Shown: positions 5,745 to 61,005 of the stretch, piece after piece
Layout: each line of letters starts with the position of its first letter
Numbering within the stretch: the stretch's first letter is position 1
Source of the DNA: a virus
DNA: 64,000 nucleotides
Virus record (IMG/VR): IMGVR_UViG_3300032024_000295
Direction: 5' to 3' (one strand)
Translations under genes and position numbers: made by a program
Notes under the pieces: generated by a model
What the model was told of the DNA's origin: nothing
The model's input: the letters and a program-made list of their open reading frames with translations, nothing else
Databases searched by the model: none

Positions 5745-6995
5745 TTAGTCCTCATTTACCATAGGCATGCCTCGGCCACCACTGTTTATCACATTGTATG
5801 GTGTCGTCTGAGGATTGCCAAAGAGCGTGTTAGTTGCAGTTTGCTGAGCAGAATTTGTAGTCTTATAGATAACATCTCTGGCTACAGTATTAAGAAATGG
5901 ATTTGCAATTCCACTCAAAACATTAGTTGAAACTTTATTAATAGCATTTCCAACAATCCCACCTATAGTGCCTTTTAAAATATTAGTAATTGGACTGAAT
6001 CCGCCACCGTTAGACCCTAAACTGTATCCGCCAAATCCATTAACCCCGCCGGCTATTTGATATCCAGCATCATAATCATGGCTAGTATTCAAGATGGAAT
6101 TGTCTGATTGAGGACCATACATGTCAGTGCCAACAGCGGCATACGGGGAGCGCTGAGCTGATGTTTCCTGTTGGTCAATATGGAGAATGTCATAATCAAA
6201 ACGGATAGTGGCATGATTACCAGGGTCTCCGCCTTCATGATGCGTCTCATCAAAACTCATATCAATGATACGTGGATTGACGAAGATAAAGGTATTCTGT
6301 TGAGCAGCATGGCCAAAGTATTGAATCAATCGAATAGCTTTAAGAGGATTAAATGTCCCATCTCGTAGTATTCCCCTAATAGCAGAATCTGACCTATCAG
6401 TTTGTTTTTCAGCGAAATTCATCCCGCTAGCTTCTAATTGAGCAATTGACTGCTGTTTATTCCACGTCCTAGAAGCAGGAGACCAGGCTTTAAGATAACG
6501 TCTGTAAAACTCTTGGAAGGTATCTTTGATATCGTCGATTAGAGTAATAGTAAGTGGCTCATGATGAATTGTCTTTAACACTTTTGTATGGAAGTTATAC
6601 ATATTGACATCTTCATAATCAAATGTTATCTTAGGTCTATCAATATGTTTTATGACATATTGAAATATATCGCTTCTAGCCGCGAGGTCAGTATAAGATG
6701 GGTCAAAATCAAAGATGACCCTAAACATAAAGCGATGTTTAGGTTGATATGCAATTAAGTCAGCAGCATAGTTTGTTGGTTGCCAGGTGTTATAGCTGCC
6801 AATAGGAGAGCCAGCGATAGACATCGGCCCACCATTAATAACGTTGTATTCTACACCACCACCGATTGGGTTATTCTGACCAAGCAATTGACCTGAGAAT
6901 TGACTGACTGCTGCGCCAAAAGTATTGTATGCGGTTTGCTGTAGTTGGACTCCAGCACCTGCTAGAGCACCAGAAAAATCTAAAACTGATGACAT
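5745..6995 (-). CDS. Tail-tube-fold protein, probable baseplate/tube initiator (gp54/gp48-like)
   Basis: gp19-fold signature IKHIDRPKITFDYEDVNMYNFHTKVLKTIHHEPLTITLIDD with long N- and C-terminal extensions. Confidence 0.6.
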   Translation of the reverse strand: MSSVLDFSGALAGAGVQLQQTAYNTFGAAVSQFSGQLLGQNNPIGGGVEYNVINGGPMSIAGSPIGSYNTWQPTNYAADLIAYQPKHRFMFRVIFDFDPSYTDLAARSDIFQYVIKHIDRPKITFDYEDVNMYNFHTKVLKTIHHEPLTITLIDDIKDTFQEFYRRYLKAWSPASRTWNKQQSIAQLEASGMNFAEKQTDRSDSAIRGILRDGTFNPLKAIRLIQYFGHAAQQNTFIFVNPRIIDMSFDETHHEGGDPGNHATIRFDYDILHIDQQETSAQRSPYAAVGTDMYGPQSDNSILNTSHDYDAGYQIAGGVNGFGGYSLGSNGGGFSPITNILKGTIGGIVGNAINKVSTNVLSGIANPFLNTVARDVIYKTTNSAQQTATNTLFGNPQTTPYNVINSGGRGMPMVNED

Positions 6996-7080: not shown

Positions 7081-8598
7081 ATGATAAAAGATAAAATAAA
7101 ATTACAACTTTTTGATGCCAAGGGATATGTGTCAGCAGCTAAGCTTCGCAAGATTTCTGAGGAATTAAAATCTGAAATATTGGCATTTGAAATTTCAAAC
7201 ATTGCAAGTAATGCTTCTTTACAAGAAAGAATTCATTGGATTTTAACTGACCGAAAAGATTATCCTAAATGCAAAAACTGTGGGGATAATTGCGTTTCAT
7301 TCAGGTCTATTAATGGTATCGGTTATGAAAGCACTATTTGCTCACGCGCGTGTCAATATGAAATGCGTGCAAAAACTAAAAAGCCAAAAATTATAATATC
7401 TAATGAGCAAAAACTGATTAATGCTGAGGATAGGAAACGTAAGCATATTGCTTCAATACAATCGGCTTTTGGCGTAGATTATCCTATGCAATCTTCAGAT
7501 GTTAGACGGAAAATGCTGAATACCCGATTACGAAATTGGTTTGAAAGACGAATAGAAAGTTGCTCAGCTATTGCTAGCCCATTATTTACCTTTGAGGAAT
7601 ATAAGTATTCTAAATCTTTACACCCCTGGGAATGCAAAACATGTGCCACTATTTTTAATGATACTATTGCAAATGGGTCTAATCCGCGATGTCCTAAATG
7701 TTTTCCTGCTTCGGTATCAAAACCGCAACAAGAAATAATTAACTTCATTCAATCTGAATTGGATGAGACATTGTTAATTAATGACAGACGGATAATTTAT
7801 CCATTGGAATTAGATATAGTTATTCCTTCTAAAAAATTATCTATCGAAGTTAATGGTGTTTATTGGCATTCAGAAAAATCTCAAACGTTTGAAAATAATC
7901 ATTTACAGAAGAAGCAAAAACTCGCAAAAGAAGTTGGATATGATGTTATATTCATTTTGGATAGTGAATGGTATTATCATCAAGAATTAGTTAAATCACG
8001 AATACGCAGCAAGTTAGGAAAATGCAAAACTATAATGGCACGAAAGTGTAATATTAATTTAGTGCCTCACCAAGTTGCTAAAAGCTTTATTCAGAATAAT
8101 CATATTCAAGGCAAAGATAATGCAACAATTTACTTAGGGCTCTATCACACTAATATTCTTATGGCGATAATGAGCTTTGGAAAATCACGATATAACAAAA
8201 ACTTCGAATGGGAATTACTTAGATATTGCACTACGCAAAATTATTCAATAACTGGCGGGGCACAGAAGCTATTGAAATATTTCGAAAATACTTTTTTGCC
8301 AAAATCTATAATTACTTATAGTGATAATAGATGGAATACTGGGAATTTATACAATCACTTAGGTTTCAATTACGATGGTGAAACTGGATTAGGATATTGC
8401 TACGTTGATAATAGAGGAAATATGCATTCACGTCAATCAATGCAGAAACATAAGCTTATGACAAAGCTAGAAAACTATAATAGCGATTTAACAGCCCATC
8501 AAAATCTACAACAACATGGTTATTATAGATTGTGGAATGCAGGGAATAAGCGATGGATTAAAACTTATTCCCTGCATAGCCAAAGATTATTAAGCTAA
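7081..8598 (+). CDS. Hef-like homing endonuclease (PD-(D/E)XK/DUF559-like)
   Basis: PLELDIVIPSKKLSIEVNGVYWHS, ARKC, NHIQG, WELLRYC, GGAQKL, TYSDNRW; CxxC Zn-finger pairs; opposite strand to its neighbours. Confidence 0.75.
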   Translation: MIKDKIKLQLFDAKGYVSAAKLRKISEELKSEILAFEISNIASNASLQERIHWILTDRKDYPKCKNCGDNCVSFRSINGIGYESTICSRACQYEMRAKTKKPKIIISNEQKLINAEDRKRKHIASIQSAFGVDYPMQSSDVRRKMLNTRLRNWFERRIESCSAIASPLFTFEEYKYSKSLHPWECKTCATIFNDTIANGSNPRCPKCFPASVSKPQQEIINFIQSELDETLLINDRRIIYPLELDIVIPSKKLSIEVNGVYWHSEKSQTFENNHLQKKQKLAKEVGYDVIFILDSEWYYHQELVKSRIRSKLGKCKTIMARKCNINLVPHQVAKSFIQNNHIQGKDNATIYLGLYHTNILMAIMSFGKSRYNKNFEWELLRYCTTQNYSITGGAQKLLKYFENTFLPKSIITYSDNRWNTGNLYNHLGFNYDGETGLGYCYVDNRGNMHSRQSMQKHKLMTKLENYNSDLTAHQNLQQHGYYRLWNAGNKRWIKTYSLHSQRLLS

Positions 8599-31071: not shown

Positions 31072-31103
31072 TGAAAAAGGGGGATGTAGTGTCCCCTTTT
31101 TCA
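31072..31103. terminator. Bidirectional intrinsic terminator
   Basis: TGAAAAAGGGGGA-TGTAGTG-TCCCCTTTTTCA between convergent genes. Confidence 0.75.
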
Positions 31104-32699
31104 TTTCTCCAAAATAAATTTGGCATGCCCACAATCAAAAACTTTTAACCATCCATTATTTGCCATATTTTCAGATTGTGATTTTGCTTCATCAAAGTTT
31201 TTTAGTATTTTTGATAGTTTGTGTTTTTGAAATCTTAATCGTGAATGGCGAATTGCTCCAACTTTAGAATTGAAGTAATAGTATCCAGGTTTAGTTTCGC
31301 CGACTTTCGTAAATCCTGATTTGATATATGACGACCCATCTCCCCACCGTAAATCTGCAAAAGTAATAATACTTCCAATGTCTTTAATATGTTTTATTAG
31401 TTTGCTTAAACCTCCAACTATGACTGTATCCAATTTAGAGCAACTTCTAATCAATTCATAATCAGCTTTTTTATCAAATCTTGATTTACTTAGCGTTATA
31501 ATTTGCGCTAATTCATCTTTATAATACAGCCCGTATTGAATACTTGATGGCGCATCTCCATCAATATGATTATCATTGAGAAACTGTCGTTTATCTTTTT
31601 GTGATACTTCTTCAATTCTACATTTTCTTGCAAATATTTTAGTATCGGTTATACCTAATTTTTGTTTTATTCTTGATATAACAATATCAAACTTATCATT
31701 TATTTCGTCTTCAAATATGTGAATTAAATTTACGTCTTTACTGTTTGCATTATTTTGTTTGGTTTTTAAAGCGGTGGATTTATCAAAAAGCTCACTGTGC
31801 CAATATAACCCATTTATTTCAATGCCGAGTCTGTCATTTAACACAAAATCAATTTCTTTGCCATTCAAGATGCTTCTATCATTTTGTTTTATATTGATGT
31901 TCGGTAATAACTTAAGAGCGTCTAATAGTTTTCTTTCGTGGCTTGATGATTTCTTTCTATAAACATCTACATTTTTCTTGTGGAGATGTTTTATTAGAGT
32001 TGTAGTGGTTACTCCTAAATCCTTAGCCATTTCTTCAAAAGATTTTTCGCTATCCTTAATACATTGAAGATTTATATCTTCATCCAAATGCGCAATAAAA
32101 GAAAGTTTATCTTTCTGATTAAAACTGGGCGCTCCATATCTTTCAATATTAGTCTGTTGAATTTTTTCTATAACGTCTTCATTGCTGAATGGGTTTATAC
32201 TACCATATCGTTCCAAATTAGTCGTTTCTATTTTTTTACGAATTACCTTTGACCCTATCCCAATTCCACCATACTTCTGTTTTAATATTTCAAAGTTTTC
32301 AGGAAGTGCTAAATTGCTCTTAACCCCATATTTTTCTAAACATGTCGCTTGTGCTTTTTTGAAAGTATTACTGCCTGGTGAATGAGAGCATTTATGACTA
32401 CAAAATGGAGTAAAACTGAAAGTATCCTTTTTAATAAACTTTGTGGGTTTGCCGCATTTTTCGCACTGTCCCCATTGCGTTATATCATTTTTTAATAATA
32501 ATATTCGTTCAGCGATAGTTGCAGTTTCCGGAAAAGATGACGTTAGTTTGTATAGATGCGACCAAATTTCACTAAATCTTTTACTTCTTGACAACATTGC
32601 ATTTACTCTATTCTTTTTATCAAATAGAATATCATTATAATAAAGAAAGAATTCTTCTCTATTCACAATTTTAGCAACCATCAATGATAAGTTCTTCAA
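31101..32699 (-). CDS. Hef-like homing endonuclease; paralog of 7081-8598
   Basis: KEIDFVL..LGIEINGLYWHS, FARKC, NHIDG, YELIRSC, GGLSKL, TFADLRW; LEKYG/LERYG repeats. Confidence 0.75.
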   Translation of the reverse strand: MKNLSLMVAKIVNREEFFLYYNDILFDKKNRVNAMLSRSKRFSEIWSHLYKLTSSFPETATIAERILLLKNDITQWGQCEKCGKPTKFIKKDTFSFTPFCSHKCSHSPGSNTFKKAQATCLEKYGVKSNLALPENFEILKQKYGGIGIGSKVIRKKIETTNLERYGSINPFSNEDVIEKIQQTNIERYGAPSFNQKDKLSFIAHLDEDINLQCIKDSEKSFEEMAKDLGVTTTTLIKHLHKKNVDVYRKKSSSHERKLLDALKLLPNINIKQNDRSILNGKEIDFVLNDRLGIEINGLYWHSELFDKSTALKTKQNNANSKDVNLIHIFEDEINDKFDIVISRIKQKLGITDTKIFARKCRIEEVSQKDKRQFLNDNHIDGDAPSSIQYGLYYKDELAQIITLSKSRFDKKADYELIRSCSKLDTVIVGGLSKLIKHIKDIGSIITFADLRWGDGSSYIKSGFTKVGETKPGYYYFNSKVGAIRHSRLRFQKHKLSKILKNFDEAKSQSENMANNGWLKVFDCGHAKFILEK

Positions 32700-45253: not shown

Positions 45254-45523
45254 TTATGAATCACTTCTTAAAAAACAAACATATGTTGCAGTTTGGTTAT
45301 ACGCATGAATGCTTCTTAGTTCAATACTAAGACCTTCGGTGCTAAAACCATCATTTCTTCTTGGAGCAGCTAATCCTAAATTACCATGCACTTGCTTTAT
45401 TTCTTCAAGAACTTTGATAAGTGCATCAATATTATATGCTCCAAATTCTGTCTGTTCTTCGTTTTCTTCTTTAAGAGTTGGAGTTGTAATTCCAGCAATT
45501 TTTTTCAGATGATTTAATTCCAT
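45254..45523 (-). CDS. Hypothetical protein, MELNHLKKIAG leader
   Basis: Start revised to 45523 because the ORF-track start runs through a tRNA-like element. Confidence 0.55.
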   Translation of the reverse strand: MELNHLKKIAGITTPTLKEENEEQTEFGAYNIDALIKVLEEIKQVHGNLGLAAPRRNDGFSTEGLSIELRSIHAYNQTATYVCFLRSDS

Positions 45524-45601
45524 AGCGTATAGTTCCTTAATTATTAGTGATAGGGTGTTTAAAAACTTATTTATCCCCTTATCACGCTTATCACGCTTAT
45601 T

Positions 45602-45685
45602 TGGCCTCCCTGCGAGGAGTTGAACCTCATGCCGTCCGCCCAATTCTAAGGATGGGTTTAGAAGACCCATATCGGGTTCAGGGAG
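45602..45685 (-). tRNA. D-armless tRNA-like RNA with UCU anticodon loop and long variable region
   Basis: Acceptor CTCCCTG/CAGGGAG, only 9 nt before TGGGT-CTTCTAA-ACCCA, 23-nt variable region, T arm, G73, CCA. Confidence 0.7.
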
Positions 45686-45889
45686 ATAATCACACACGTT
45701 TAAATCTTGGTTTTGTAACATTCGCTTTGTTGGACATACACTATAGCCTTCTGAATATCCCATCCGCAATTTATCAAAGCCTTCTTACATTCCATTACAC
45801 CTTCACCGGTCAATCGCCTTAGCTCTTGAACTATCTTATTCTGTTCTTGCGTAAATGTCATATGTAAATGCGTGTCTCATTATAGTGTG

Positions 45890-45958
45890 CGGCCCCTAGA
45901 AGAGTTGAACTTCTCCATCGGCGTTCGTAGCACCAAGTCCGAATCCGTCGGAGGGGCC
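45890..45958 (-). tRNA. tRNA-Arg(ACG), short atypical D arm, no encoded CCA
   Basis: Acceptor GGCCCCT/AGGGGCC, TTGGTG-CTACGAA-CGCCGA, AGAAG-TTCAACT-CTTCT. Confidence 0.7.
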
Positions 45959-55205: not shown

Positions 55206-56336
55206 CTAAAAGAAGAACTGCATATCGTTTTTGCGCATATAGTCGGTTATCCTGTTGATCCGTTCGGCTTTGATAGCCTCACCGATTGCTTTGCCTTTCA
55301 AGGTCGACCTTTGGTCTTCAGTCAAGGACTCGAAGCTAACGCTCAAGTACTCGAAGTGCAATCTCAACATCACCGACGGTTCGATAGCCAAGTTGGGGTG
55401 TATGATCTCAAACATAGCCTGAGCCTCCCACAACCGACCACCAGAGTAAGAGCCTTTAATCACATCAAACAACTCAACGATCGATCTGGCACTCGAACTA
55501 CCACAGGCAGTTCGAAACTCAAAAGCGTCTTTTGCCAACTGTTTGACTTCGTTTGGGATTTTCATCCTTTCGGAAATTTCGTCAATGGCTTCTTTACGAA
55601 CCGCCAACATCAGCAAGTAGGCCATCCGCTGAGTAGGTGATTCCAAATCGGTCAAGGTATTGATGACTGGAATAATAGCTCTAACTGAATGGCTCATTAT
55701 AGCTTCGTACAACTCTGGAAATACCACCTTCAATGCACCTGAATGTTTCAAACATGCGATGAATCTGAATGGATCGGCCTCAGACATTGCTTTAATGAAC
55801 TCCAAGTAGATGCGCTCTTTAGACAAGTGCTCCAATTCTTTCGCATCAACAATGTCTTTCATCAGCTCCATTGTTTCATCTGCGATTTTGAAGCCTTTAT
55901 AGCGAGCCACAAATCGAGCCACTCTCAGCACTCTCAATGGGTCTTCAGCGAAGGCGGTAGTTGTGTGTCTCAAGATACCCGCGCTCAAATCTGGATAACC
56001 ATTAAATGGGTCGATGATGTTGCCTTCATCATCCATAGCCATCGCATTGATGGTCAAATCCCGCCTCGACAAATCCTCTTTCAAGGTAACTGACACATCA
56101 AACTCGGTCTCAAAGCCATGATAGCCTGCAGCAACCTTACGTTCTCTGCGAGCCAATGCGTACTCTTCTCGAGTTTCAGGGTGCAAAAAAACGGGAAAGT
56201 CGGCGCCGACTTGAACGAAGCCATCAGCCAACATCTCTTCAGGAGTGGCACCTACGACAACATAGTCGATATCTTTAGCAACACGACCCAACAGTCTGTC
56301 CCTCACATATCCGCCACAAATAAAAATTTTTTTCAT
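55206..56336 (-). CDS. cca: CCA-adding tRNA nucleotidyltransferase (lacks an obvious HD motif)
   Basis: GGYVRDRLLG..DIDYVV, VGADFPVFLHP..EEYALARRERK, EDL.RRDLTINAMA, EDPLRVLRVARF. Confidence 0.95.
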   Translation of the reverse strand: MKKIFICGGYVRDRLLGRVAKDIDYVVVGATPEEMLADGFVQVGADFPVFLHPETREEYALARRERKVAAGYHGFETEFDVSVTLKEDLSRRDLTINAMAMDDEGNIIDPFNGYPDLSAGILRHTTTAFAEDPLRVLRVARFVARYKGFKIADETMELMKDIVDAKELEHLSKERIYLEFIKAMSEADPFRFIACLKHSGALKVVFPELYEAIMSHSVRAIIPVINTLTDLESPTQRMAYLLMLAVRKEAIDEISERMKIPNEVKQLAKDAFEFRTACGSSSARSIVELFDVIKGSYSGGRLWEAQAMFEIIHPNLAIEPSVMLRLHFEYLSVSFESLTEDQRSTLKGKAIGEAIKAERINRITDYMRKNDMQFFF

Positions 56337-58946: not shown

Positions 58947-59252
58947 TTATATTTCGTATACTCTACTGACTTTATCAGCAAACAGCCAGAGTGTATTATC
59001 GCCATTGATATGGTCGGGGCATTCCATAATAGAAAACTCATAGCAGTTTTCTTCATATTCAGGGTCAGCAAACGTGGCAGGTTTCATTTTCTTGATATAT
59101 CGGCCAGTTGGTTCTAAGATAAACACATTGGCTTTTTCTTCAAAGTGGTATGAAATGCCATATTCAATTCCTTGGTTCTTAGCAATATTAACTGTCATCG
59201 TATTATCTCTCTCTTCTGGTAGTTCAAGTTTATAAGTCATTGTATTTTTCAC
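58947..59252 (-). CDS. Hypothetical protein
   Basis: ORF in operon. Confidence 0.5.
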   Translation of the reverse strand: MKNTMTYKLELPEERDNTMTVNIAKNQGIEYGISYHFEEKANVFILEPTGRYIKKMKPATFADPEYEENCYEFSIMECPDHINGDNTLWLFADKVSRVYEI

Positions 59253-60021
59253 GCACTGAATTCAAATGCTCTTGGTCCATAACTTTACCGAAGGTGTTAA
59301 CTGCCAAGAAGGCAGCGTATTTTTCTTTTTCAGTAGAATCTTCTGACATGATACCCAATGAGATGCCATATTGATCGAAATGGATTCGGTCACGAAAAGA
59401 AAGTTGAGAGTAGTAAACACCTTTGTAAGGGAAGCGGTCTTCGTAGAATTCAACCAATGCAGTTAGACGTTGTTTACCATCGATAACTTCGTACATTTTA
59501 CTATATGCTTCGAAAGGGCGTTTTGCCAATACGAACAAACCGATGGTGATGTTGTTGAAGATCGAATCGATCAATTTTTCTTTATCTTCTTGAGACCAAA
59601 CGTAATCACGTTGATACTCAGGAGAAAAGTCAACACCTGCATAATCATACAGGACGATTGAAAGCAGACCATCAATATCGCGGTTTGATTGGCTCATACG
59701 ATATGCAATAGGCACAGTGAAAGAAGTTTCTACACGTGAGTTCAGTTTTTCCAGTTGATGCCAGCAAACGATTTGCTCTTGAGAGTATTCAGTTGGTGTT
59801 CCATAGCTGTTTTTGGTGCCAAAAACATGAACTTTGTAAGCAACACCATCATCGTAGACTTCCAAGATTTCAGTGTTACAGTGGTTGCCATAGCGAACTG
59901 CTTCGCCAACTTCAAAAGTACGAGTAGGTTTGAAACCATCGCGAACTCGCCAATCTTTATCAGAACGTGGATTATATACGATAGGTGCGGGACTTCTACT
60001 TTTTTTTGCTTTAGCAGCCAT
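59230..60021 (-). CDS. DUF262 (ParB/GmrS-like) domain protein
   Basis: PEYQRDYVWS..LIDSI..YEVIDGKQRLT. Confidence 0.85.
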   Translation of the reverse strand: MAAKAKKSRSPAPIVYNPRSDKDWRVRDGFKPTRTFEVGEAVRYGNHCNTEILEVYDDGVAYKVHVFGTKNSYGTPTEYSQEQIVCWHQLEKLNSRVETSFTVPIAYRMSQSNRDIDGLLSIVLYDYAGVDFSPEYQRDYVWSQEDKEKLIDSIFNNITIGLFVLAKRPFEAYSKMYEVIDGKQRLTALVEFYEDRFPYKGVYYSQLSFRDRIHFDQYGISLGIMSEDSTEKEKYAAFLAVNTFGKVMDQEHLNSVREKYNDL

Positions 60022-60232: not shown

Positions 60233-60321
60233 TGAAGCGGCAAGTGGGAATCGAACCAAAGACCCGTCGGTCTCACTCCGCTCGGTTAGGTGCCGAGCGC
60301 ATCGCCTAGTGCTTTCGCCGC
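60233..60321 (-). tRNA. Atypical tRNA with CCU anticodon and long variable arm
   Basis: CTCGG-CACCTAA-CCGAG, CGG/CCG variable stem, GCGGCGA/TTGCCGC acceptor, mispaired T stem. Confidence 0.55.
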
Positions 60322-60929: not shown

Positions 60930-61005
60930 TGGAGCAGGTGACAAGCTTCGAACTTGCAACATCCGACTTGGAAGGACGACGCTCTACCAACTAAGCTATG
61001 GCGGC
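60930..61005 (-). tRNA. Chimeric tRNA-Gly(UCC)
   Basis: D arm, T arm, TCC loop, U73 and CCA intact; acceptor GCCGCCA/CACCTGC has 4 mismatches. Confidence 0.6.

Follow-up and report, generated by a model that had tools for sequence, protein, structure and literature searches.

A jumbo phage gene for a probable tRNA-Arg(UCU) with a rewired, pseudoknotted core, and its relatives in phages and soil bacteria

All known bacterial tRNAs were stated in a 2024 paper to be cloverleaves (PMC11551756). Two described systems are among the closest to the RNA that we report here. The D-armless tRNA-Ser of animal mitochondria is a reduced molecule that is without the G18G19/T-loop elbow signature and is charged with serine by an adapted enzyme (PMC4013460, PMC9427863). 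The allo-tRNAs keep a D stem-loop like that of tRNA-Sec, with a long stem and a tetraloop, together with a free V-arm hairpin (PMC5389517). With respect to amino-acid identity, the main determinants recognized by E. coli ArgRS are A20 and C35 (PMC9976931). We analysed a stretch of 64,000 nucleotides of viral DNA (IMG/VR record IMGVR_UViG_3300032024_000295; hereafter, the window) and examined an 84-nt RNA that is encoded on its minus strand at 45602-45685 and has a UCU anticodon and an encoded CCA.

The element keeps three features of canonical tRNAs, an acceptor stem, a 7-nt anticodon loop with U33 and a purine at position 37, and a T arm with a UUCRANY loop, while the canonical D stem-loop (positions 10-13 paired with 22-25 around G18G19) is missing. 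A first-pass annotation of this DNA had described perfect acceptor, anticodon and T stems with CCA, and we find the same: 7 Watson-Crick pairs in the acceptor stem, 6 bp in the anticodon stem and 5 bp in the T stem, including one U-G. That annotation was likewise right that there is no D arm. A D hairpin is impossible between the acceptor and anticodon stems, where the RNA has only AA and CCCGAU. The pairing that it proposed between CCCGAU and AUUGGG is borne out as well; these strands, which flank the anticodon arm on its 5′ and 3′ sides, form a 6-bp helix (hereafter, the D-type helix) that is part of the minimum free energy fold given by ViennaRNA and covaries in relatives. The variable region that it gave as 23 nt spans 22 nt from the anticodon stem to the T stem, and a length of 23 nt is obtained when 5 bp are assigned to the anticodon stem; the G73 that it pointed out is present in the window copy. 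The segments in Table 1, read in order with a CA dinucleotide between the second strand of the V helix and the T arm, make up the entire RNA. The acceptor/T branch of the window copy is of the 7/5 type, in which A8 faces a G and U49-G65 is paired. All 19 nt of the anticodon arm recur as the anticodon arm of a tRNA-Arg(UCU) in the viral contig L001; this tRNA has an ordinary D-loop and a short variable loop, and the contig ends before its 5′ end is reached.

Table 1. Segments of the 84-nt element in the 5′ to 3′ order of the RNA, with coordinates in the window
Feature	Coordinates	Strand	Remarks
Acceptor stem, 5′ strand CUCCCUG	45679..45685	-	Pairs with 45606-45612; 7/7 pairs change on both sides across the family
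Connector AA, positions 8-9	45677..45678	-	A8 unpaired in the window copy
D-type helix, strand CCCGAU	45671..45676	-	Pairs with 45639-45644; continues straight into the anticodon stem
Anticodon arm AUGGGU-CUUCUAA-ACCCAU	45652..45670	-	Anticodon UCU at 45660-45662; U33 and A37 present
V helix, 5′ strand CC	45650..45651	-	Pseudoknot partner is 45632-45633
Linker UUAGA	45645..45649	-	A-rich linker of 5-9 nt in relatives
D-type helix, strand AUUGGG	45639..45644	-	Covaries with 45671-45676
Loop CGGAC with GGA motif, read as G18-G19-A20	45634..45638	-	Directly 3′ of the D-type helix strand
V helix, 3′ strand GG	45632..45633	-	Partner is 45650-45651
T arm UGAGG-UUCAACU-CCUCG	45613..45629	-	Standard UUCRANY loop; inner stem pairs conserved or covarying
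Acceptor stem, 3′ strand CAGGGAG	45606..45612	-	Changes on both sides across the family
Discriminator G and encoded CCA	45602..45605	-	Read from the sequence

Standard tools do not recognize the element as a tRNA gene. It is not called by ARAGORN, and the Rfam tRNA model (RF00005) gives no match to it at the gathering threshold (29 bits) or at E values up to 10; the sole Rfam match is to tRNA-Sec, at 21.2 bits compared to a cut-off of 47. With default settings, ARAGORN called 3 of the 69 distinct sequences of the family described below (among the matches listed, the window's own included). The folding energy of the element is within the range expected by chance (z = -1.0), and thus folding of this single sequence proves nothing. 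An alternative fold, in which a D hairpin CCC-GAUAU-GGG is combined with an anticodon stem UUCUAA/UUAGAA and an 8-nt loop, was rejected, as the relatives are unable to form it and the CUUCUAA loop is invariant. Nor do we regard the complementarity of the linker UUAGAA to the anticodon loop as a feature, since UUAAC, UAAAAG or the like stands there in most relatives. Two reading frames that cross the element (45254-45769, minus strand, and 45547-45822, plus strand) are considered spurious, because conservation is limited to the RNA and tracks its base pairing.

The window is part of a jumbo myovirus, with genes for a large terminase, a tail sheath, a tail tube and large HNH homing endonucleases. 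The sheath is ∼50% identical to those of Ralstonia phage RsoM2USA and of jumbo phages of Xanthomonas and Stenotrophomonas, and ∼40% identical to those of Rak2/121Q-like phages; the GC content of the window is 37.8%. From 43.7 to 62.2 kb, ARAGORN finds 14 other tRNAs, all on the strand that encodes the element, and Rfam adds a 15th at 60933-61005. The element itself lies between two small minus-strand ORFs (45700-45861 and 45254-45523), and a scan for promoters and terminators near the gene found none above the shuffled background.

Several neighbours of the element deserve mention in their own right. The 53-aa ORF directly upstream (45700-45861, minus strand) has a weak match to an EF-Ts N-terminal/UBA domain (PF25025, E 1e-4, below the cut-off) and could encode a small EF-Tu-binding protein; this ORF is not conserved beside the rewired tRNA at other loci. 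At 45578-45600, right after the CCA of the element, the 9-nt unit ATAAGCGTG stands in tandem, followed by two degenerate copies, and the unit is found nowhere else in the window. Two other tRNA-Arg genes are unusual. One, a very compact 70-nt tRNA-Arg(ACG) at 45889-45958 (minus strand), is called by ARAGORN and falls under the Rfam threshold; its acceptor stem joins the D stem CCGA/UCGG directly, and it has a true D hairpin with the 5-nt loop CGGAU, a 6-bp anticodon stem and a 3-nt variable loop. The other, an 86-nt gene at 60236-60321 (minus strand) that ARAGORN calls tRNA-Arg(CCU), has A33 replacing U33 in the anticodon loop CACCUAA, a 6-bp hairpin GAGACC-GACG-GGUCUU after the anticodon arm and a poor T stem. 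The tRNA cluster includes a gene for a 376-aa protein of the CCA-adding enzyme (tRNA nucleotidyltransferase) type at 55206-56336 (minus strand), which has a poly(A) polymerase head domain and its RNA-binding domain, as well as a GmrSD_N-like gene (59230-60021) and a DUF932 gene (53236-54201). In the structural gene region, two paralogous genes for HNH homing endonucleases of ∼500 aa (7081-8598, plus strand, and 31101-32699, minus strand) form interruptions.

Relatives of the element are found in many viruses. We scanned IMG/VR with a pattern composed of the anticodon-arm core, a gap of 20-36 nt and the T-loop, and at least 100 viral contigs matched it. The matches listed comprise 68 distinct sequences, or 69 when that of the window is added, and almost all of these have a perfect 7-bp acceptor stem and no space for a D hairpin; the loci were selected by a UCU pattern, so that the count of UCU members is biased. 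Two layouts are seen. Type A, the layout of the window, has a strand of 5-6 nt on the 5′ side of the anticodon stem and a long region on its 3′ side. Type B, for example in phage 121Q, has U8-A9 and a strand of 3-4 nt, and its partner strand is followed by AAYUGGA and a short UAUG-type loop. The nearest relatives among the matches listed are in contigs L048, L075 and L083, with 90.6% identity over 85 nt; their flanks are unrelated to those of the window, and the similarity does not extend beyond the RNA. Where the window and L048 (nearest among the matches listed) differ, the changes are nearly all paired, at positions 1-2 and their partners, U15 to C with A42 to G, and G18 to C with C32 to G.

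Other routes to relatives yielded little. Neither the element nor its nearest relative had a match in near and distant blastn searches of INPHARED, and an exact pattern of the T arm and acceptor stem had none in the viral contigs. Searches with the flanking small proteins returned either nothing or an unrelated contig without tRNAs, while searches with the tail sheath returned distant phages only, with an ordinary UCU tRNA or none. Copies of both types are present in cultured phages: type A in E. coli phage Av-05 (NC_025830.1, 7397-7478, minus strand), at 73 bits, and in Salicola phage SCTP-2, at 79 bits, neither of them annotated, and type B in 33 phage records, mostly Asteriusvirus, of which most leave the gene unannotated. 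The type-B tRNA-Arg(UCU) of 121Q (NC_025447.1, 73585-73666; L117:321-402) is labelled tRNA-Leu(taa) in RefSeq. A tandem pair of type-A genes, one with a UCU and one with an ACG anticodon, is found at L090:6421-6504 and 6509-6592 (minus strand), in a 318-kb record classed as a provirus by IMG/VR.

The family extends to bacterial chromosomes. In a scan of one genome per species, 83 bacterial contigs matched the pattern, and ∼70 of these are from Pyrinomonadaceae and other Acidobacteriota. The bacterial copies sit within long tRNA arrays on one strand. In the array of L129, the rewired gene coincides exactly with a gap that ARAGORN leaves between tRNA-Thr and tRNA-Met; among the ARAGORN calls in this array are Arg(GCG), Arg(CCU) and Arg(UCG), but not Arg(UCU). 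An ordinary tRNA-Arg(UCU) is also present elsewhere in one of the array-bearing genomes. The arrays of three Pyrinomonadaceae chromosomes (L129:2840-7035, L142 and L162) have up to 32 tRNA genes on one strand, and each includes a 92-nt tRNA-Ile(UAU) along with a rewired tRNA-Arg(UCU). Gaps of ∼100-200 nt in the ARAGORN lists of Pyrinomonadaceae arrays may hide further odd tRNAs or structured RNAs.

All of the proposed helices show covariation, in each of two alignments. In a MAFFT alignment of 29 type-A sequences, 89.7% of the cells at paired positions can pair, compared to 69.6% in shuffles, and 17 of the 27 pairs change on both sides; the covariation values are above those of all 500 shuffles and of every slid control. 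For the D-type helix (CCCGAU:AUUGGG), 4 of the 6 pairs change on both sides in this alignment, and 5 of 6 do so in a model-based alignment of 44 distinct sequences, with 88% of cells paired. Alignments made with a covariance model lean toward the structure of the model, but the MAFFT alignment, which is independent of the minimum free energy fold, agrees. In type B, all three pairs of the corresponding split D helix change on both sides. At position 8, type-A sequences (among the matches listed) form G-C with the last T-stem column in 36 of 44 cases, A-U in one and U-G in one; thus, most type-A members have an 8/4 branch, while the window and its nearest kin are 7/5.

A further helix, the V helix, joins the bases after the anticodon stem to those just 5′ of the T stem. 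Of the two strands of the D-type helix, only the 3′ strand lies within the V helix, and the fold is therefore a pseudoknot. The V helix is only 2 bp (CC/GG) in the window, and the case for it there therefore rests on the relatives. It is CCU/AGG, GAC/GUC, GGC/GCC, GGCA/UGCC, GUCU/AGAC, ACG/CGU, CUC/GAG or CAC/GUG in viral relatives, and CCU/AGG, CCG/CGG, CCC/GGG, CCUG/CAGG or CCCA/UGGG in bacterial copies. Where the alignment is in register, 2 of 3 pairs change on both sides and 97% of cells pair. The mean length of the V helix is 2.61 bp, compared to 2.20 ± 0.08 bp with permuted partners (maximum 2.41 in 1000 trials).

Covariance models connect the viral and bacterial copies in both directions. 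Model R1, built from the viral copies and the window, scored 72 of the 83 bacterial pattern matches at 55-93 bits. Model R2 was built from the bacterial copies alone, with the window outside its training set; it scored the element at 78.6 bits (E 4e-18), whereas the best ordinary tRNA in the window scored 27.7 bits. The covariance-model search for homologues with compensatory changes that had been suggested in the first-pass annotation thus found them in both viral and bacterial copies. Given the 90.6% identity to sequences with unrelated flanks, the covariation and the score of 78.6 bits from an independent model, we conclude from these sequence comparisons that the element is neither a chance arrangement nor a decaying gene and that the D-type helix is real. 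The suggestion that the fold is new also stands, in that we found no description of it in the literature.

Several observations point to arginine as the amino acid. The anticodon is one of the Arg set (NCU or NCG), and the 3′ strand of the D-type helix is followed by GGA in 41 of 44 type-A and 25 of 25 type-B sequences (among the matches listed) and in 56 of 59 bacterial copies. Within type B, this motif belongs to AAYUGGA, which resembles an Arg-type D-loop from A14 to A20 and precedes a UAUG variable loop that L001 also has in its ordinary tRNA-Arg(UCU). In the window, the CGGAC loop of the element can be compared to the CGGAU loop in the true D hairpin of the compact tRNA-Arg(ACG). A scan of 0.94 Mb that was blind to the anticodon returned 48 UCU, 2 UCG, 2 ACG (one doubtful) and 1 CCU, such that all real members have Arg anticodons; its other 3 matches were ordinary tRNAs in which the D arm had been taken as the anticodon arm. 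Single mutations separate the four Arg anticodons, as would be expected if they all descend from one rewired tRNA-Arg. Model R1 found a type-A fold with a Tyr anticodon (GUA, in the loop CUGUAAA) at L112:1957-2044 (plus strand), in which CGGC replaces GGA; this viral contig also has a rewired tRNA-Arg(UCU) at a distance of ∼1.8 kb. When three near-complete IMG/VR phages (93-100% complete) and phage 121Q were searched with a pattern that ordinary UCU tRNAs match as well, the rewired gene was the sole UCU match. It also occupies the UCU place in accessory tRNA arrays that are otherwise nearly complete. The phage studied here was sampled as a 64-kb window, and an ordinary tRNA-Arg(UCU) may lie elsewhere in its genome.

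The first-pass annotation had read the molecule as having a Ser-type body and had suggested that it might be a mistranslating tRNA that inserts Ser at AGA. We consider it extremely unlikely that the element inserts Ser, or another non-Arg residue, at AGA codons. Such a recoding tRNA would be in keeping with the long region after the anticodon arm and with the G73 of the window copy, and it would have precedents both in allo-tRNAs with AGA/AGG anticodons and non-Arg identity (PMC5389517) and in the D-armless tRNA-Ser(UCU) used in animal mitochondria. However, of the features of a bacterial class II tRNA-Ser, the element has G73 and has neither the free variable hairpin nor a Ser anticodon; the V helix of the window is 2 bp and pseudoknotted, the acceptor stem begins C1-G72, U2-A71, and the family has four Arg anticodons and an A20-like GGA. 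Nor is G73 conserved: position 73 is U in 15, A in 15, G in 13 and C in 1 of the 44 type-A sequences (among the matches listed) and is mostly U in the bacterial copies. When rewired and ordinary tRNA-Arg genes from one locus were compared, this position agreed in 30 of 88 cases, which gives no signal, and since the ordinary tRNA-Arg genes of these loci are equally variable, position 73 says little about identity. It does count against arginine that U73 is common in the family, though A73 or G73 is listed for Arg identity. AGA accounts for 139 of the 330 Arg codons in the 20 largest ORFs of the window and is the commonest Arg codon, so that its misreading would harm most proteins; homologues of the sheath have Arg opposite 7 of its 10 AGA codons and Ser opposite none. 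Neither the Ser-type body nor the insertion of Ser at AGA is upheld by these results.

Two other explanations place the element outside ordinary decoding, in whole or in part. In one, which we think unlikely, it is a nuclease-proof spare or decoy: nucleases or defences of the host or of rivals would recognize the D-arm or elbow of tRNA-Arg, and the rewired RNA would either continue AGA decoding when the ordinary tRNA-Arg is cut or soak up the nuclease. Phage tRNAs are known to counter defences that cut tRNA (PMC11555353), the bacterial copies are located in long accessory tRNA arrays, the lone non-Arg member found by R1 has the anticodon of tRNA-Tyr, a known nuclease target, and there is a CCA-adding-enzyme-like gene in the window. 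On the other hand, no nuclease, defence or anti-defence gene is linked to the element in the window, and a pure decoy would give no reason to conserve the GGA along with the acceptor stem, the CCA and the T arm; a spare tRNA could at the same time be a working tRNA-Arg, so that this version does not oppose our main explanation. In the other explanation, to which we assign very little probability, the element is a non-translational tRNA-like RNA, such as a primer, a regulator or a processing signal in the tRNA cluster, or a decaying tRNA gene, as might be suggested by its rejection by the standard finders and its ordinary folding energy. Decay is excluded by the covariation and by conservation across unrelated phages and bacteria, and a non-translational role would leave unexplained the Arg-only anticodons, the intact loop with U33 and A37, the CCA and the status as sole UCU tRNA. 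A decoy or non-translational role thus explains less of the evidence than an Arg tRNA does.

We consider it probable, from the sequence comparisons, that the element is a working elongator tRNA-Arg(UCU) for AGA with a core that is a topological isomer of the cloverleaf, and we infer that it is charged with arginine and decodes AGA. The D stem of an ordinary tRNA leads into the anticodon stem by its 3′ strand, and its 5′ strand lies opposite the point at which the 3′ strand of the anticodon stem ends. In the rewired molecule, the strand after the acceptor stem (CCCGAU) itself runs into the anticodon stem, and its partner (AUUGGG) comes back after the anticodon arm; the D-type helix thereby wraps the anticodon arm and lengthens it, and the CC/GG helix crosses it to make the pseudoknot. 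The chain would then form the GG-A loop near the elbow and join the T stem. Along this path, therefore, the same stacked helices would be possible with different connections. The NGGAN loop would act as the D-loop, with both G residues docked on the T-loop and the A serving as A20 for bacterial ArgRS. With A20 and C35 read by ArgRS, the molecule would keep its L shape and be charged with arginine; EF-Tu would carry it by the 12-bp acceptor/T branch, and U36-A37-A38 of the anticodon loop would remain a substrate for t6A. A tRNA of this kind would supply AGA decoding to an AT-rich jumbo phage. In type A, the GGA loop, which has 5 nt and is predicted to be pinned by the V helix, could instead lie along the helix like a G45-G46 variable loop.

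What might have favoured such a core is a matter on which we offer only a tentative and rather doubtful suggestion, namely that it was selected to hide an AGA decoder from nucleases or defences directed at tRNA-Arg while the contacts with ArgRS, EF-Tu and the ribosome were kept. If true, this would explain the recurrence of the rewired gene in phage tRNA clusters and in chromosomal arrays of spare tRNAs.

If the rewired tRNA-Arg is charged and used, it would be a natural counter-example to the statement that bacterial tRNAs are all cloverleaves, a topological isomer of the tRNA core that selection has maintained across hundreds of phages and a whole family of soil bacteria. Such a tRNA would reveal which parts of the core are truly required by ArgRS, EF-Tu, RNase P, the modification enzymes and the ribosome, and would offer a ready, orthogonal-looking scaffold for engineering of the genetic code. 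The tRNA counts of phage and bacterial genomes would then be systematically short, because ARAGORN calls so few of the family sequences (3 of 69 among the matches listed). Carriers that can be cultured exist for both layouts, in E. coli phages Av-05 (type A) and 121Q (type B).

Compared to known systems, the rewired family resembles the mitochondrial tRNA-Ser(AGY/UCU) in the absence of a D hairpin, the lengthened anticodon helix and an anticodon of the AGN box (PMC4013460, PMC9427863). The mitochondrial tRNA, however, has neither the split D helix nor the pseudoknot, both of which are found in the rewired family, and the element differs further in its position in a phage tRNA cluster and in keeping the standard T-loop and the GGA; if functional, the rewired tRNAs would operate with bacterial machinery. 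We see no sign of common descent between the two. The allo-tRNAs and the 8/4 and 9/3 tRNAs (Mukai et al., PMC5389517) are likewise non-standard tRNAs of bacteria and phages and are extended on the 3′ side of the anticodon arm, the 8/4 branch is shared by most type-A relatives, and some allo-tRNAs have AGA/AGG anticodons (PMC5389517). The element has no D hairpin, no free V-arm, and a 7/5 branch in place of 8/4 or 9/3. As allo-tRNAs retain the tRNA-Sec-like D stem-loop (PMC5389517), the element is not one of them.

Two further comparisons are with tRNA-Arg genes. The type-B rewired tRNA-Arg of Asteriusvirus 121Q, PBECO4 and others shares with the element the split D helix, the anticodon arm and the GGA-bearing loop after it, and is likewise the sole UCU tRNA of 121Q. 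It differs in having U8-A9, a helix of 3-4 bp, the longer AAYUGGA and a short UAUG-type variable loop, and in having no V helix. With the ordinary class I tRNA-Arg(UCU) (RF00005; L001 and E. coli argU), the element shares the 7-bp acceptor stem, the UUCRANY T-loop, the CUUCUAA anticodon loop and the GGA, and presumably the same job, the reading of AGA as Arg. In contrast to that tRNA, the element has no D hairpin; the strands of its D helix are split by the anticodon arm, its GGA loop comes after that arm, and the pseudoknot helix is an addition.
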